DNA of 10,074 bases from a virus (lineage: Duplodnaviria; Heunggongvirae; Uroviricota; Caudoviricetes), in IMG/VR virus record IMGVR_UViG_648276668_000010. The stretch is one strand, 5' to 3'. The notes beneath the pieces were generated by a model that was not told the DNA's origin, did no database searches, and was given only the letters and a program-made list of their open reading frames with translations. Positions 1-6,600 of this stretch are shown piece by piece. A program made the position numbers and the translations under genes. The first letter of the stretch is position 1. Each line of letters begins with the position of its first letter.

Positions 1-2
1 AT

Positions 3-371
3 GGTGACGCCATTCAGGCAACAAAAGCGGCTGCGGCAATCCGTAAAATCACGATTGAAGCAAACCAGACCGCTGATTTTGAAGATAATGACTTCAGCGG
101 CAAACGCTCCCTGATGGAATCTGTCGAAGCGAAGACCAAAGACATTATGCCAGTGGCATTTGAATTTAAATGCGTTCCGTTTGAAGGTCTGAAAGAACGT
201 CCGTTTAAATTACGCCTCAGCATTATCACTGGCGATCGTCCTGTACTGGTTCTGCGCATTATTCAGCTGGAAGCGGTGCAGGAAGATATGGCTAACGAAT
301 TTCGTGATCTGCTTGTTGAGAAATTCAAAGACAGCAAAGTAGAAACCTTTATTGGTACTTTCACCGCCTGA
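3..371 (+). CDS. C-terminal part of a phage protein (5' end outside window); by synteny upstream of yfdR possibly YfdQ-like
   Basis: Frame 3 is open from position 3 to the TGA at 369-371 and gives a protein-like translation (…[43 protein letters not shown]…FIGTFTA). A strong hairpin follows. Identity inferred from position only. Confidence 0.55.
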
Positions 372-383
372 TTTCATTACTGC

Positions 384-405
384 AAATGCCCCTGCGGGGG
401 CATTT
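384..405 (+). terminator. Probable intrinsic (possibly bidirectional) terminator hairpin after the upstream phage gene
   Basis: Perfect inverted repeat AAATGCCCC-tgcg-GGGGCATTT: 9 bp stem, 4 nt loop, GC-rich core flanked by A/T runs, 13 nt after the stop at 371. Confidence 0.5.
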
Positions 406-498
406 ATGGAAACGTAATTAACTCAATAATCACCGGATGGTGAGGGCTTCCTTTTACCCAAACTCAGCGCGGTGCAGCGCATATACGTGGAGAACAAA

Positions 499-1035
499 AT
501 GTCATTTATTAAAACTTTTTCCGGGAAGCATTTTTATTATGACAAGATAAATAAAGACGACATCGTGATTAACGATATCGCGGTTTCCCTTTCAAATATC
601 TGTCGCTTTGCCGGTCATCTTTCTCACTTCTACAGTGTCGCCCAACATGCGGTGCTTTGCAGCCAGCTGGTGCCGCAGGAATTTGCTTTTGAAGCGTTAA
701 TGCATGATGCAACAGAAGCGTATTGCCAGGACATCCCCGCACCACTGAAACGCCTTCTTCCTGACTATAAACGGATGGAAGAAAAAATAGATGCAGTAAT
801 CCGTGAGAAATACGGGTTACCTCCTGTTATGAGCACGCCAGTGAAATATGCCGATCTCATTATGCTGGCAACCGAACGCCGTGATCTCGGGCTTGATGAT
901 GGCTCTTTATGGCCTGTACTGGAAGGTATCCCGGCAACAGAGATGTTCAAAGTTATTCCACTGGCACCGGGCCATGCCTACGGGATGTTTATGGAACGCT
1001 TCAACGAGTTATCGGAATTACGCAAATGTGCATAA
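499..1035 (+). CDS. yfdR: HD-domain phosphohydrolase, YfdR-type 5'-deoxynucleotidase (178 aa)
   Basis: ATG at 499 preceded by GGAG (cgtGGAGaacaaaATG). Translation MSFIKTFSGKHFYYD…HD…ELRKCA has a His/Asp-rich HD-type core (…HLSHFY…MHDATEAY…). Length 178 aa matches YfdR as I recall it. The ORF-track start at 472 is 9 codons upstream and lacks an RBS. Confidence 0.8.
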   Translation: MSFIKTFSGKHFYYDKINKDDIVINDIAVSLSNICRFAGHLSHFYSVAQHAVLCSQLVPQEFAFEALMHDATEAYCQDIPAPLKRLLPDYKRMEEKIDAVIREKYGLPPVMSTPVKYADLIMLATERRDLGLDDGSLWPVLEGIPATEMFKVIPLAPGHAYGMFMERFNELSELRKCA

Positions 1036-1904
1036 CTCATGTAGTTAGTTTTTCTGGCGGGAGAACATCCGCATATCTTGTTCACCTGATGGAAGAACAA
1101 AGAAAGGCTGGCAATAACGTCTGCTACATCTTTATGGATACCGGTTGCGAACATCCGCTGACATACCGCTTTATCCGGGAGGTTGTAAAGTTCTGGGACA
1201 TACCACTAACTGTGTTACAAGTCGATATAAATCCTGAGCTTGGGCAGCCAAATGGTTATACAGAATGGGAGCCAAAGGATATTCAGACACGAATGCCGGT
1301 GCTTAAACCGTTTATGGACATGGTTAAAAAGTACGGCACGCCATACATCGGCGGCGCGTTCTGTACTGACAGGCTAAAACTCATCCCTTTCACGAAATAC
1401 TGCGATAACCATTTCGGGCGAGGTAATTACATCACATGGCTGGGTATTCGTGCAGACGAACCCCGTAGGCTGAAACCGAAATCGGGCGTCCGGTATCTTG
1501 CCGAGCTGTCAGATTTTGATAAGTCGGATGTTATCCGGTGGTGGCGAAAACAACCTTTTGATTTGCAAATCCCGGAGCATCTCGGGAACTGTGTTTTCTG
1601 CATCAAAAAGTCAACGCAAAAGCTGGAGCTTGCATGTAAAGACGAACCAGGTCTGATGCGAGTTTTTAATGAGCTGGTTACAGGCAAACACGTCAGGGAT
1701 GGTCATCGCAGAACAGGTAAAGACATTATGTACCGTGGTCACCTGACGCTTGACGGAATTGCCAGAATGTCTGCCAACAGCGACTACAGAAATTTGTATC
1801 AGGCGATGGTACAGGCCAGGCGATTCGATACCGGTTCGTGTTCAGAGTCATGTGAAATCTGGGGTGATCAATTGGAATTGGAATTCGAAGAGGTAGGGGT
1901 ATGA
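1026..1904 (+). CDS. Phage PAPS-reductase-like PP-loop ATP pyrophosphatase family protein (lambda NinC-like), 292 aa
   Basis: N-terminal PP-loop motif VVSFSGGRTS in MCITHVVSFSGGRTSAYLV…, typical of the PAPS reductase / N-type ATP-PPase fold. Start ATG at 1026 overlaps the yfdR stop by 10 nt. The longer ORF from 909 would overlap yfdR by 127 nt and is less likely. Confidence 0.7.
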   Translation: MCITHVVSFSGGRTSAYLVHLMEEQRKAGNNVCYIFMDTGCEHPLTYRFIREVVKFWDIPLTVLQVDINPELGQPNGYTEWEPKDIQTRMPVLKPFMDMVKKYGTPYIGGAFCTDRLKLIPFTKYCDNHFGRGNYITWLGIRADEPRRLKPKSGVRYLAELSDFDKSDVIRWWRKQPFDLQIPEHLGNCVFCIKKSTQKLELACKDEPGLMRVFNELVTGKHVRDGHRRTGKDIMYRGHLTLDGIARMSANSDYRNLYQAMVQARRFDTGSCSESCEIWGDQLELEFEEVGV

Positions 1905-2245
1905 CAACCGAAATTAACTACCATGCACTGCTTGAGCGCGCACGGAATAAAGTGCAGAGCATTGATTTCGCCTTAACACAGAGTGCATTCGCTGAGATTC
2001 GCGCTGAGCTTGAAAATGATTTAGAACTGGCACGGATTGCACTGGCATCTCTGGAAGTTGAGCCAGATGAACGCGCAGCCTATGAATTATTTATGGAAAA
2101 GCGTTTCGGTAAAACAGTCGATCGTCGGAGAGCAAAAAACGGCGATAACGAATACATGGCATGGGATATGACTCTCGGTTGGATCGTCTGGCAGCAACGA
2201 GCTGGTATCCGTTTTTCAACAATGTCACAGCAAGAGGTGAAATAA
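1901..2245 (+). CDS. Hypothetical small phage protein (114 aa)
   Basis: ATG at 1901 overlaps the upstream TGA (ATGA coupling) and is preceded by GAGGTAGGGG. Acidic/helical-looking translation with no motif I recognise. Confidence 0.6.
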   Translation: MTTEINYHALLERARNKVQSIDFALTQSAFAEIRAELENDLELARIALASLEVEPDERAAYELFMEKRFGKTVDRRRAKNGDNEYMAWDMTLGWIVWQQRAGIRFSTMSQQEVK

Positions 2246-2337
2246 TGGAGCCATACAGCCTCACACTCGATGAGGCCTGTCAGTTTCTTAAAATATCCTG
2301 ATCTACCATCGCCGTCATAGAGCGTATTTTTATTACC

Positions 2338-2353
2338 TGATTTGCAGGTTCGA
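2338..2353 (+). other. tRNA T-arm-like fragment (TTGCAGGTTCGATTCC) just upstream of torI
   Basis: Contains the conserved tRNA T-loop motif GGTTCGATTCC with a 5' T-stem half GCAGG, but the 3' T-stem half is not complementary (CCCTA), so it is not a functional tRNA. Confidence 0.35.
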
Positions 2354-2376
2354 TTCCCTATTCGGAGATAGCACTC

Positions 2377-2577
2377 ATGCAACACGAACTACAGCCTGAT
2401 TCACTGGTTGATTTGAAATTCATCATGGCTGATACTGGCTTTGGTAAAACCTTCATCTATGACCGGATTAAGTCAGGCGACCTGCCAAAAGCCAAAGTTA
2501 TCCACGGGCGAGCAAGATGGTTATATCGTGACCATTGTGAATTCAAAAATAAGCTCTTAAGCCGCGCCAATGGGTAA
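2377..2577 (+). CDS. torI: TorI: KplE1 prophage excisionase / recombination directionality factor and Tor operon inhibitor (AlpA-like HTH, 66 aa)
   Basis: 66-aa product MQHELQPDSLVDLKFIMADTGFGKTFIYDRIKSGDLPKAKVIHGRARWLYRDHCEFKNKLLSRANG, which I recognise as TorI. GGAG lies 10-13 nt upstream of the ATG. Sits directly beside the att core, as expected for an RDF. Confidence 0.85.
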   Translation: MQHELQPDSLVDLKFIMADTGFGKTFIYDRIKSGDLPKAKVIHGRARWLYRDHCEFKNKLLSRANG

Positions 2578-2649
2578 AATAGCGGGTAAAATATTTCTCA
2601 CATCTAAAAAACACCATTCCAATCAATCCCCTGCTGCTTCAAGTAGATG

Positions 2650-2665
2650 TCTGCAGGGGACACCA
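2650..2665 (+). repeat. Prophage attR core: duplicated 3' end of tRNA-Arg (argW), TCTGCAGGGGACACCA
   Basis: The sequence ends in the acceptor-stem/discriminator/CCA signature of a tRNA 3' end without the rest of the tRNA, 73 nt after torI. This matches the argW 3' end as I recall it; the exact core length needs alignment. Confidence 0.6.
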
Positions 2666-3024
2666 TTTATCATCCCCCTCGCAATAACCCACTTACAATC
2701 AGTGAGTTATCTTAAAATCCTTAGTATAGTCAACCAGTACTTCGATATGTGAACGCAAATCATCATGCATTCGTGAACTTAACTGGAAACCTCCCCCATT
2801 CGATGTCAAAATGACTACCCCAATAAGTTGCCAATAATCAGGCTAATCAATACGGGTCAGTCTTGCTGGTCAGTGATCATAAAAATGTCACCTCATATTA
2901 GACTCAGCAAATAATTGTGTCGATTAAACATACTACCTTCAGCATAACCGTTCCTGAAAAATTATTATATTCAGTAATCTGAATAAATTACTGGCCTGCT
3001 ATTTTTCTTAGCAACCATATTTAG

Positions 3025-3068
3025 CAGCAAGCCAGCAAATCTGAATGATTACAGATGCTGGCCTGCTG
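3025..3068. repeat. 12-bp inverted repeat (CAGCAAGCCAGC … GCTGGCCTGCTG, one G-U wobble, 20-nt loop) in the 3' flank of the Skp-like gene; the motif CTGGCCTGCT also occurs as a direct copy at 2991-3000
   Basis: Read directly from the sequence. Lies 35-78 nt beyond the Skp-like stop on the minus strand. Could be a terminator-like or mRNA-stabilising stem-loop, or protein-binding sites. Confidence 0.45.
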
Positions 3069-3102
3069 AATCTCCCTTCTGGAAATCGTCAGAATCTAGT
3101 GA

Positions 3103-3555
3103 TTACTTACTTTGTTCTGGTTTCTCTTCATTCTTATTGTGCACTTCCACTTTGGGTAATTTATTAAAAACCAGATTTTCTTTTTCAACCAGAGTCATGA
3201 CTTCTTTGGTGATTTCAGCTGACTCGTTATGCGCAAGCACAACACCTGAAGACAATACGGCAATATTTTTAGGATTGTCTTTTCTCCATGTGCCTATGGC
3301 ATTATCTATCGCACGGGATAACACCATTTTTGCGCTATTTTCCTCAATAACATATTGTCGTTCCAGTTTTTGTCTGGCATCAAGAAGCAGCGCCTCTTTA
3401 TTCGCGTTATCTGCGAATGTTTTTTGCGCATCCTCATATCCTTTTTCAAGAATACTCTTAACCTCATTCAGATGCTTTTTGGCCATGTCTCCGGCGGTAG
3501 ACTGATTATAAATAGCATCGATATTAACAACTGCAATTTCTTTTGACTTTTTCAT
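3103..3555 (-). CDS. Skp/OmpH-family periplasmic chaperone-like protein (150 aa) with no in-frame signal peptide
   Basis: Translation aligns by eye to mature E. coli Skp at both ends: KEIAVVNIDAIYNQ vs DKIAIVNMGSLFQQ, and IAVLSSGVVLAHNESAEITKEVMTLVEK vs [28 protein letters not shown]. The encoded protein starts at MKKSKE with no hydrophobic leader, and a stop lies 16 codons upstream in frame. Markedly AT-rich compared with the adjacent autotransporter. Confidence 0.7.
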   Translation of the reverse strand: MKKSKEIAVVNIDAIYNQSTAGDMAKKHLNEVKSILEKGYEDAQKTFADNANKEALLLDARQKLERQYVIEENSAKMVLSRAIDNAIGTWRKDNPKNIAVLSSGVVLAHNESAEITKEVMTLVEKENLVFNKLPKVEVHNKNEEKPEQSK

Positions 3556-3620
3556 ATAAAAACACCAGTAAGTACAATCAGCAACAGCAGCACTACTGCA
3601 TTAACAACAGAAAATTTCAT
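3552..3620 (-). CDS. 22-codon hydrophobic mini-ORF (MKFSVVNAVVLLLLIVLTGVFI), signal-peptide-like, overlapping the Skp-like start as ATGA
   Basis: Minus-strand ATG at 3620-3618 and TGA at 3554-3552, whose TGA shares two bases with the Skp-like ATG (3555-3553). Has a basic N-terminus followed by a 13-residue hydrophobic core. No strong RBS. May be the displaced signal peptide of the Skp-like gene or an independent small membrane peptide. Confidence 0.35.
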   Translation of the reverse strand: MKFSVVNAVVLLLLIVLTGVFI

Positions 3621-3647
3621 TACAGAACTCATTATGACAACCCTGAG

Positions 3648-3672
3648 GTGGCAGGAGGTCCCCTCCTGCCAC
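3648..3672. promoter_or_regulatory. GC-rich perfect stem-loop (GTGGCAGGAGG-tcc-CCTCCTGCCAC) between the autotransporter stop and the mini-ORF/Skp-like genes
   Basis: 11-bp perfect inverted repeat with a 3-nt loop, 8 nt after the autotransporter stop codon (3680-3682). No U-tract follows on either strand, so it is not a canonical intrinsic terminator; more likely an attenuator or RNA-stability element. Confidence 0.5.
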
Positions 3673-3679
3673 TGTGTGA

Positions 3680-6600
3680 TTAGAATATATATTTAATACC
3701 CAGCATTGCCTGGGCATCACTGTACCCTTTATCGCCAGCCTGAACACCAACATTGCCCCAGACACTCAGGTTATCTGACAATTTACCCTGAACACCCGTT
3801 TTGACTTCAGCAATATTTGTAGCTCCGTCCTGACTGAGTGCCGTATTATCCATTTTGACACCCCAGCTCCGTGTATTATGGATCCAGTTAACTTCCACAA
3901 ATGGCTCAAACTGATGCGCCTTATTATCATCAGACGCACTCTTACCTTTCAGGTAAGTTCTGACGCCCAGACGACTCTGGATATTACCGTCTCCGCTGAG
4001 CTGAACTTTCGTGCCATTCTTCTCCGTATGCTCACTGGCTCTTACATTCATCCACGTGATCTGGGACTGCGGCTGAATATACCAGTCATAGTGGCTACCC
4101 TGGCTACCGATAAATTCGCCGGCTTTAAAGGTATAACCCGCTTCCACTGAACCGGTAAATCCACGGGATTTCCAGGACTCCGCAGCCAGTTTTTCACCAT
4201 TAACGGTATTATTAAACCATCCGTACTGGATCCAGGTATCGACATAAGCCCCGTTGTCATTACCGTCATTCTGCTGCCACGTTCCGTATAAACCGGTGCT
4301 GTATCCATTGATCGCACCTTTAGATTTATATCCCGAAAGCGAGGATGTCGTGGAACTCTTCTCATTTCCATAACCGGCCATAATCCCCAGTTGCAGACGG
4401 TCCTGACCGTCAGTCCATTGCGCAATGCTGCCACCCAGTTGCACAACATAACGGTTACTTTGCGTATTCAGCTGTGAACTGCTGTCCTTCCAGCGATTAT
4501 GACCGCCGATATGACGCATCCACATACTTGTTGCTTTCTTCTCACCAGTAAACACATCGGTATAGTAAGTTTCCCCCTCACGATCGTGCATTCTGATGTT
4601 GAACAGCGTGTTGGCTGCCGCTATGTTCGCAATATAAGAGCCCGCTTCCGGACGATAGACCTTCTGTACAGGTTTATCCGGCGTGGGGTGTGGCTGTGGC
4701 TGCGGTTGTGGCTGCGGCTGCGGTTGTGGTTCTGGCGGCAATTCAGAACGCAGATACCAGTTACCGTCAGTACCACCCGCATTACCTTTATGCAGGAAAT
4801 ATTCCCATGCCCCTGCCACCGCACGGTTCTGCAGTCTGAAGTTACCGTCAGAATGCCCACCGACATGCACAATCTCAATGCCGTCAGCGGTCTGAGCCCC
4901 CTGGCCCCGGACATTATTCACCACCACGCCGGTATCACCGGAGGTGTTACCCGTGACAATCAGTTTGTCAGTGGCAGAAGTATCATCCCCCAGCACGGTA
5001 TTGATAATTAACGTACCGCCACCGGTGTAATCGCCATTTACGGTCAGGGTATTTCCTGTCTTACCACCGGCCAGACGAATGACGCCGGTATTGGTCAGTG
5101 AACCAACCGTAAAATTGCTCGCCTCTGCCGTTTCATAACCTGAGAGAGCATTCAGTGATGCCAGTGTTCCCTGGTTATTAACCTGACCCGAAACGGTCCC
5201 CAGCCCACTCAGTGTGCCGCCATTAAGAACATGAATGTTTTTGGATCCTGACAACGTCGCACCAGCGGCACGGGTGACTGAATCATCACCGACAATCAGA
5301 ACGCCATTCTCAACCGTGGTATCACCGGTATAAGTCAGCTCATGATTAATAATCAGATTACCCGCCCCCTGTTTCACCAGAGCGCCGGAGCCAGTAATAT
5401 CATTCTTCAGTAACCAGTTTCCACTGGCGGTAAGCCAGGTGACACCATCACTGTCAATCAGCCCGGTGCCCAGGTGTTTTTCATCTGAAGCCCGCAGAGC
5501 AGCATCTTTCTGCACACGGAATTCACCGCTGAAATTACTGTTATCCCCGGAAAGCGTCAGATCAGTGGTGTTCAATATACCCACTGAACCTTCTCCGGAA
5601 AGCGATTTACTCAGGTTACTGCTGACTCCGCTACCGTCGGCGATATCAATCGCCAGGCGATCACTAAGGCTTTCAAAGCTGATGGAACCCTGGCTTCCCA
5701 GCCCCTGTGCGCCGTTCATTTCAACCAGCGCCCCCTGGGTAAGGCTGGCATTACCGGTAAACCCGATATTGGTGCCATGTACCGTCAGGTCGCTGCCCGT
5801 GACAGCCAGCGTTCCCTCACCGGACAGCACGTTGTTTTCAATGACGCCACCATTATCATCGCCCGGCTGACGCTGCGTGCCGCTGACCGTTAGCACACTA
5901 CCGCTATCAAGCTGAATGTGCGATCCCGTTTCTGTCTGCAGTACACCGACAGTCTGGCTGTATCCGTTTGTTCTGAAGACGGCATTGCTGGCGACGTTCA
6001 GATTACCTGTTGCGCCAAGAACATTGTCATTTGCCATCTGTAATGTGCCGCTGCGCACCAGCGTATCCCCGGTATAGTTATTACCGCCGTTAGACAGTGT
6101 GACAACCTGCCCCGCAGCTTCGATGGCCAGATCCCCTGCCCCCGTTAACTGTGCGCCAAGATCTGTCTGCAGTCCTTGGGCATTCGCTCTCGGTGTCAGC
6201 ACCAGCGCTTTATCACCGGTTCCCTGTAAATCCAGCGACTTCAGCCCATAGCCTATGTACAGTCCGTCACCTTTAATCCCGTCGGAGCTTCCCAGCAGCT
6301 TATAGTCATAATTTCCCTGAGCTACAACTTCACCGCCCTGAGTGACATCAAACGTCTGACTGTGAGAAATAGCCTGCCCGTTTTCATCCACCAGTTGCAG
6401 TTGCCCGCCAGTACCGGTGACGGTACCCGCTGCATTCACCAGTGTGACCAGGGTCTGCGCATCATCCTGCTCCAGCAAATTCTTACGGGTATCAACAGCC
6501 GGAATATCATTAATCACTTCATCTGGCATGGTGACCTGAATTGTGCCTTTCCCCCGAATATCCAGCGTACCTGCAGCAGAGGTTTCAATACTGTTGCTGG

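Follow-up and report, generated by a model that had tools for sequence, protein, structure and literature searches.

Right end of an argW prophage beside the separate, published UpaE island of Escherichia coli

Two described systems of Escherichia coli meet in the DNA analysed here. The phage DNA can be compared with KplE1 (CPS-53) of E. coli K-12, for which a duplicated 16-nt core, CTGCAGGGGACACCAT, and the function of TorI in KplE1-type recombination have been published; the torI-att module is common to HK620, Sf6, CUS-3 and others (PMC2951348). The chromosomal DNA can be compared with the interval between argW and dsdC, a locus that has been called hypervariable (PMC8787464, citing Moritz & Welch 2006) and in which an island is listed as PAI-CFT073-argW (PMC7545054). 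This island carries upaE. According to the published description of the system, UpaE is a 271-kDa surface adhesin active in biofilm formation, extracellular-matrix binding and kidney colonisation, ipuR and upaE form a two-gene operon, and the invertible promoter ipuS flips ipuR-upaE transcription on and off (PMC6083910).

The whole stretch of DNA that was analysed (the window) is 10,074 nt long and matches E. coli HYM1 and T-HYM1 (from duck) across all 10,074 bases. The window and HYM1 differ at three positions only: a single substitution, and a one-base length change in each of two homopolymer runs. The window is the right end of an argW prophage beside the separate, published UpaE island, and this arrangement is an ordinary one: the att core, the TorI/IntS module, the hypervariable argW-dsdC interval and the upaE/ipu island have all been published already. 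A common phage family has landed beside a known island, and the finding as stated matters little in itself. It is of use for annotation, where the prophage boundary should be placed at 2651-2666 and all sequence to the right of it assigned to a chromosomal island.

The prophage arm and its attachment core

Positions 1..2650 are the right arm of a KplE1/CPS-53-family prophage, with all genes on the plus strand. The HYM1 RefSeq annotation places here the 3' part of yfdQ (1-371), yfdR (499-1035) and a hypothetical gene (1901-2245). Between the latter two lies a PAPS-reductase-family gene (1026-1904) with a Pfam PAPS_reduct match over 1026-1901, and the arm ends with torI (2377-2577), a 66-aa ORF encoding the excisionase, or recombination directionality factor, of the KplE1-type module. 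The torI gene reads toward the adjoining attR, and its product has the same protein accession, WP_001163428.1, in the annotations of HYM1, K-12, A42 and 0H26. The other end of the prophage is outside the window; in HYM1 it consists of an intact argW, the duplicated core (attL) and the adjoining intS, with 37,889 bp from the attL core to the attR core. The HYM1 prophage contains genes for gtr-type O-antigen modification, a contractile tail, an HK97-type head, lysis and regulation.

KplE1 of K-12 has the same 16-nt core, the same TorI protein and the same 73-nt distance between torI and the core, and it also has intS next to argW at its other end. In contrast to KplE1, which is a 10.2-kb remnant, the prophage described here, of ~37.9 kb, is full length and includes genes for head, tail, lysis and regulation. 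On its bacterial side, attR borders on the upaE island here and on dsdC in K-12. Strain A42 carries a lambdoid prophage with unrelated early genes that joins the window sequence at ~2327 and abuts the same island; the torI-att module is all that these different phages share. In strain 0H26, 'plasmid unnamed 4' (NZ_CP081786.1) is a circular record of 39,448 bp in which torI, 73 nt, the core and intS are contiguous, as in an attP. It seems to represent an argW phage, either excised or replicating, whose genome was taken for a plasmid at assembly. As a circle of a related phage with the same module, it is indirect evidence that the prophage may be able to excise by means of IntS and TorI.

The attR core CTGCAGGGGACACCAT was found as an exact 16-mer at 2651..2666 on the plus strand, in a single copy in the window and with its first base 73 nt past the torI stop codon. 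By chance, with up to three mismatches allowed, a mean of 0.09 matches was obtained per shuffle. The core comprises the final 15 nt of argW and the next base, and it is identical in K-12, HYM1 and attP. Homology of the window to K-12 extends no further than 2666, and that between the window and island-bearing, prophage-free strains begins at 2651, extending back into tRNA-Arg in those strains. The core and the homology breakpoints thus agree on the prophage/chromosome boundary, which an earlier note on this sequence had likewise drawn 73 nt past torI. The same note had placed the core at 2650-2665; its match to the 3' end of argW holds, but the position was one base too far left, as position 2650 is T in the window and C in argW. 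A search of the whole window by ARAGORN returned no tRNA gene, because only the 15-nt 3' tip of argW is present, as fits an attR.

A second piece of argW, a 16-nt copy of its T arm (TTGCAGGTTCGATTCC), is located within the prophage at 2342..2357 on the plus strand, 20 nt upstream of the torI start. Its exact match in the window is unique, and 200 shuffles gave no match even at two mismatches. In argW, the last base of TTGCAGGTTCGATTCC overlaps the att core, and a 31-nt stretch of argW is accordingly found in the window as two pieces with one base (C) in common, 293 nt apart and with torI inside the intervening DNA (2358-2650). TTGCAGGTTCGATTCC is kept both in KplE1 of K-12 and in the lambdoid prophage of A42, which is unrelated, and it may be what is left of an old att site, or belong to the torI promoter or the attR arm. 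Inside the attR arm, a tandem direct repeat, GGGTAAAATA-GC-GGGTAAAATA, was observed at window positions 2572-2593, where it overlaps the torI stop codon. Judged from its sequence, this repeat may be a candidate binding site for a recombination protein.

The argW-dsdC island

HYM1 is the nearest complete genome, and its island has the order ompH-like gene, upaE, ipuR, ipuS, ipuA, ipuB, followed by dsdCXA, with a size of ~12.3 kb (12.26 kb). In Nissle 1917, which has no prophage at this site, the order is yfdC, argW, a 436-nt spacer, an OmpH-family gene, upaE, ipuR (HTH), ipuA, ipuB and dsdCXA, and the left junction of Nissle is common to CFT073, ABU 83972 and ATCC 25922. The annotation of A42 likewise has upaE, ipuR, ipuA and ipuB in the interval before dsdC. 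The island has the same position, gene order and sequence as PAI-CFT073-argW, with the genes annotated UpaE, IpuA and IpuB, and the CFT073 left junction from yfdC/argW to the 436-nt spacer is an exact match to that of Nissle. The argW of CFT073 and Nissle is free of any prophage; here one lies between argW and the island.

The left end of the island is at 2667, the first base past the core and one base beyond the tRNA 3' end. At this base the sequences diverge, with CCTTGT... in K-12 and TTATCA... in the island. At the right edge, K-12 and the island strains become homologous again at HYM1 locus position 34827, within the last codons of dsdC. The alignment to K-12 and other strains that the earlier note proposed therefore defines both insertion end points, the core and the last codons of dsdC, between which ~12.26 kb stands in place of 108 bp of K-12 sequence. 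The note had also named dsdC as the neighbour expected at this locus in K-12, and what comes after the core in K-12 is indeed 108 bp of unrelated DNA that leads to dsdC. Similarity between the 108-bp K-12 spacer and the right end of the island was not significant, as 35 of 500 shuffles scored as high.

The E. coli genome has a GC content of ~50.8%. The island as a whole is at 43.5% and its ipuR-ipuB segment at 33%, with dsdCXA at 48.5%. Within the window, the block-by-block comparison that had been proposed gave 38.3% for the spacer, 37.2% for the ompH-like gene and 50.4% for the part of upaE that is present.

The spacer (2667..3102), which belongs to the island, runs for 436 nt from argW/attR to the 3' end of the ompH-like gene. 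It holds no gene and no noteworthy ORF, in keeping with its earlier description as ~440 bp of AT-rich non-coding DNA. In prophage-free island strains the spacer is contiguous with argW at 98.9-100% identity, and the window and Nissle spacers are 99.3% identical. Six-frame translation of the spacer, tblastn with the genes found behind the Skp-like gene in the other contexts of the module, and blastn against these contexts uncovered no gene remnant, and an Rfam scan of 2200-3800 with E up to 1 gave no match. Read on the minus strand, the right-hand ~160 nt of the spacer make up a strongly structured 3' trailer just past the stop codon of the Skp-like gene, and the minus-strand fold of 3105-2940 has a z of -5.75. 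Three copies of a CTGGCCTGCT-type motif are present in this part of the spacer (2991-3000, 3025-3037 and 3056-3068), two direct and one inverted, and they make the long hairpins of the trailer.

Relation of the island to the prophage

The distribution of the island and of the phage module was counted in 5426 complete E. coli genomes. In 253 of them (4.7%) the OmpH-like gene occurs together with the upaE 3' end, far from the presence in essentially all related genomes that the earlier note had named as the mark of a conserved core locus. The junction from yfdC/argW to the spacer is contiguous, with the island present and argW unoccupied, in 186 genomes (Nissle, CFT073 and 184 others). The torI-core-spacer junction, in which the island lies beside a torI-type prophage, was found in 36 genomes, and two or more unrelated phages are involved. 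In 2386 genomes (44%) the core is joined to dsdC as it is in K-12, and 1616 genomes contain torI-module sequence. As the island abuts the module in only 36 of these 1616, ~1,580 torI-module genomes are without it. With 253 genomes carrying the island, 186 of them free of the prophage and 36 with it, island and prophage therefore assort independently. The island is accessory, and it is neither core genome nor phage cargo. The separate islet that the earlier note had suggested at this locus is thus the known argW-dsdC island.

The direct adjacency of the two blocks could also be read to mean that the prophage carries the adhesin/chaperone block about with it as cargo, whether as a moron or as flanking DNA acquired by imprecise excision. 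A deposited sequence, 'Escherichia phage GER2' (MG710528.1), seems to speak for this, as the entry contains the whole island and has UpaE labelled as a tail fibre. However, the 88-kb deposit runs 13.3 kb into the chromosome: positions 1-13291 are chromosomal, include the whole upaE island and a complete argW, and match Nissle at 99.3%, and the phage DNA begins on the 5' side of argW. As the start of the record is Nissle-like chromosome, its boundaries are too wide. At least one public "phage genome" therefore wrongly takes in the island, with ipuA labelled 'integrasse' and UpaE mislabelled as 'long tail fiber proximal subunit', and its correction is a further use of the boundary given here. 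Carriage of the island on the flank of the prophage, which the earlier note had offered as a second option, is also refuted by the att core, which divides the two blocks exactly and leaves the island outside; by the 186 genomes in which the island lies beside an unoccupied argW; by the ~1,580 torI-module genomes that lack it; and by the two unrelated prophages that abut it. We consider this origin to be extremely improbable.

It is less improbable, but still unlikely, that site-specific recombination placed the island in tandem, or 'stacked', at argW as an integrative element of its own, which has since lost its integrase and distal repeat. The left edge of the island is the first base past the att core, its GC content is low, and the same gene module is found on other mobile replicons, all of which would suit such an element. 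The first six nt of the spacer (TTATCA) are moreover the right flank of attP, such that identity with attP extends over 22 nt here compared with 16 nt in K-12. This 6-nt match is weak evidence, and Nissle reads CTATCA at the same place; the match is a small hint of an old att-related origin and too short to carry weight. Classical tRNA-integrated genomic islands have a distal repeat of the tRNA 3' end and an integrase adjacent to the tRNA, and neither was found in the argW-dsdC island. A second copy of the core with up to three mismatches was sought on both strands of the HYM1, Nissle, A42 and K-12 loci, covering ~27 kb right of the core in HYM1 and ~20 kb in Nissle and A42, and only the expected copies were found. 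The recombinases annotated in the HYM1 and Nissle islands are IpuA and IpuB alone, two FimB/E-like invertases of 190-210 aa located at the end far from the tRNA, and we found no integrase of the phage or P4 type. The right edge lies inside the dsdC 3' end and has no repeat. The att-like repeat or integrase remnant expected beyond the autotransporter was thus looked for and not found, which speaks against tRNA-directed stacking. A very unlikely origin, in our view, is that the Skp-like/upaE block is ancestral core DNA deleted from most E. coli, K-12 included. The dsdCXA and yfdC genes do flank the block in every strain examined, and the 108-bp spacer of K-12 bears the marginal resemblance to the island right end noted above. 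Against this, the block is present in 4.7% of complete genomes compared with 44% for the K-12-type junction, its GC content of 33-44% is below that of the genome, and homologous modules are found in unrelated contexts, in Salmonella diarizonae and in P1-like phage-plasmids.

We regard it as highly probable that two independent accessory elements meet at yfdC-argW/dsdC, the island having come first and the phage later. The DNA left of 2651 belongs to a ~38-kb prophage with a KplE1-type IntS/TorI module, which entered the 3' end of argW by site-specific recombination at its 16-nt core and so produced the attR at 2651-2666. Right of the core is the native chromosome of the lineage, which in this case is the argW-dsdC island and not the K-12 arrangement. 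The island, as a low-GC, replacement-type variable segment, would already have been present when the phage arrived, an order suggested by the distribution. Two further parts of this account, an extended operon and a holdase, are ones that we infer from the conserved gene pairing, the ~47-nt spacer with its hairpin, the structured trailer and the Skp-like predicted fold. The ipuR-upaE transcript would run on through the hairpin into the Skp-like gene and end in the trailer facing argW, and the Skp-like protein would serve as a periplasmic holdase for the 270-kDa UpaE precursor.

The Skp-like gene and its autotransporter

The Skp/OmpH-like gene is located at 3103..3632 on the minus strand and encodes 176 aa in related strains. 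In HYM1 it is annotated as an OmpH-family "membrane protein". Pfam OmpH (PF03938) scores 24.7-26.3 bits with the protein against a curated cut-off of 32.4, and it matches 7 of 7 homologues with a best E-value of 1.9e-6. A sequence search of the PDB gave no match, and an hhalign profile comparison with E. coli Skp did not reach significance. The fold predicted for the protein resembles that of Skp, with a strand, a long helical hairpin, strands and a helix, and the best structural matches of the predicted model are OmpH-like and Skp chains. By prediction, therefore, the protein shares with Skp (OmpH/HlpA) a small beta body and a long alpha-helical hairpin, although the sequence similarity is marginal. 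The N-terminus, to judge by its residues, looks like an uncleaved hydrophobic anchor and not a typical cleaved signal peptide.

Skp is a general periplasmic holdase for outer-membrane proteins and autotransporters, and skp is a housekeeping gene in the bamA-skp-lpxD cluster. Unlike skp, the Skp-like gene is accessory and always adjoins an autotransporter gene. Its family is narrow, comprising E. coli, other Escherichia and Salmonella diarizonae only. A one-genome-per-species scan with the 150-aa Skp-like protein confirmed no relative, because a single-sequence query reaches close relatives only.

The 3' four-fifths of upaE occupy 3680..10074 on the minus strand, with the gene extending past the window end; it encodes a phase-variable AIDA-type autotransporter adhesin and is named UpaE in RefSeq. 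Its product matches the Pfam families Autotransporter beta-domain (E 1e-39), AC_1 (1.9e-26) and PATR and the NCBIfam model autotrans_barl (2.2e-119). The domains of a type Va autotransporter, namely the C-terminal beta-barrel translocator, the autochaperone domain and passenger repeats, are thus present, and the earlier identification of the gene as an autotransporter stands. Between the upaE stop and the ompH-like start is a 47-nt spacer that holds a perfect 11-bp, G+C-rich hairpin, GTGGCAGGAGG-N3-CCTCCTGCCAC (3648..3672, minus strand). As the hairpin has no U tract, it is probably an RNA element between the genes and not a terminator. It was also found at ~9960-9985 of locus L006, ~9756-9780 of locus L008 and ~13961-13985 of pAPEC201602 (L011); it is kept in variants of the P1-like plasmids, and in Salmonella diarizonae it is present with one mismatch.

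The autotransporter and Skp-like genes are paired in several other settings. In S. diarizonae, genes for a recombinase and a GerE regulator come first, then that for a 2632-aa autotransporter, and last that for a homologue of the Skp-like protein with 63% identity. P1-like IncY phage-plasmids and related contigs carry PapI/PapB-type regulators, an autotransporter of ~2640 aa and a homologue with 75-79% identity, followed by phd/doc, lpa, pac (pacAB), c1 and cre. In one such plasmid, pAPEC201602 (IncY, 102 kb), the region 4795-15183 contains a UpaE-like autotransporter as two split ORFs and the Skp-like gene. In E. coli, on the P1-like plasmids and in Salmonella alike, ~47 nt separate the autotransporter gene from the Skp-like gene and contain the same hairpin. 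The regulatory front end varies: the E. coli argW island and S. diarizonae have the IpuA/B invertible promoter with a LuxR-type regulator, and in the P1-like phage-plasmids PapI/PapB-type regulators take the place of the ipuS switch. Remote homologues (31-33% identity) are encoded downstream of autotransporter genes on two plasmids of Yersinia ruckeri. On one of these the homologue is directly behind the autotransporter gene; on the other, ~1.8 kb of decayed sequence lies between split S6-peptidase autotransporter genes and the homologue. The autotransporter gene, the conserved 11-bp hairpin and the Skp-like gene may together constitute a cassette that is joined to different front ends in different contexts.

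The recurrence of this pairing across replicons suggests a dedicated chaperone. We propose tentatively, as a possibility that falls somewhat short of probable, that the Skp-like protein is such a chaperone, possibly anchored in the inner membrane, and that it moves with giant autotransporter genes as a two-gene cassette. UpaE expressed from a plasmid reached the surface of K-12, and that plasmid, as far as it is described, did not include the Skp-like gene (PMC6083910). A dedicated chaperone would therefore be at most helpful and not essential. The published text that describes the ipuR-upaE operon makes no mention of a downstream Skp-like gene, and the word 'chaperone' occurs 0 times in it (PMC6083910); in the literature searched, we found no description of a client-linked Skp paralogue of this kind. 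If confirmed, this would be a dedicated periplasmic chaperone for a 270-kDa adhesin, for which the conserved pairing is a lead and not a result.

Both homopolymer changes that distinguish the window from HYM1 fall in this gene pair. In the Skp-like gene, the A run at 3558-3562 is A5 in the window and A6 in HYM1, Nissle and A42, and the shorter run splits the N-terminal hydrophobic segment from the 150-aa body. In upaE, the A run at 10011-10018 is A8 in the window and A7 in the same three strains; the longer run breaks the upaE frame, and the ORF restarts at 10069. The A5 and A8 changes are either homopolymer sequencing errors or a real inactivation of both genes.
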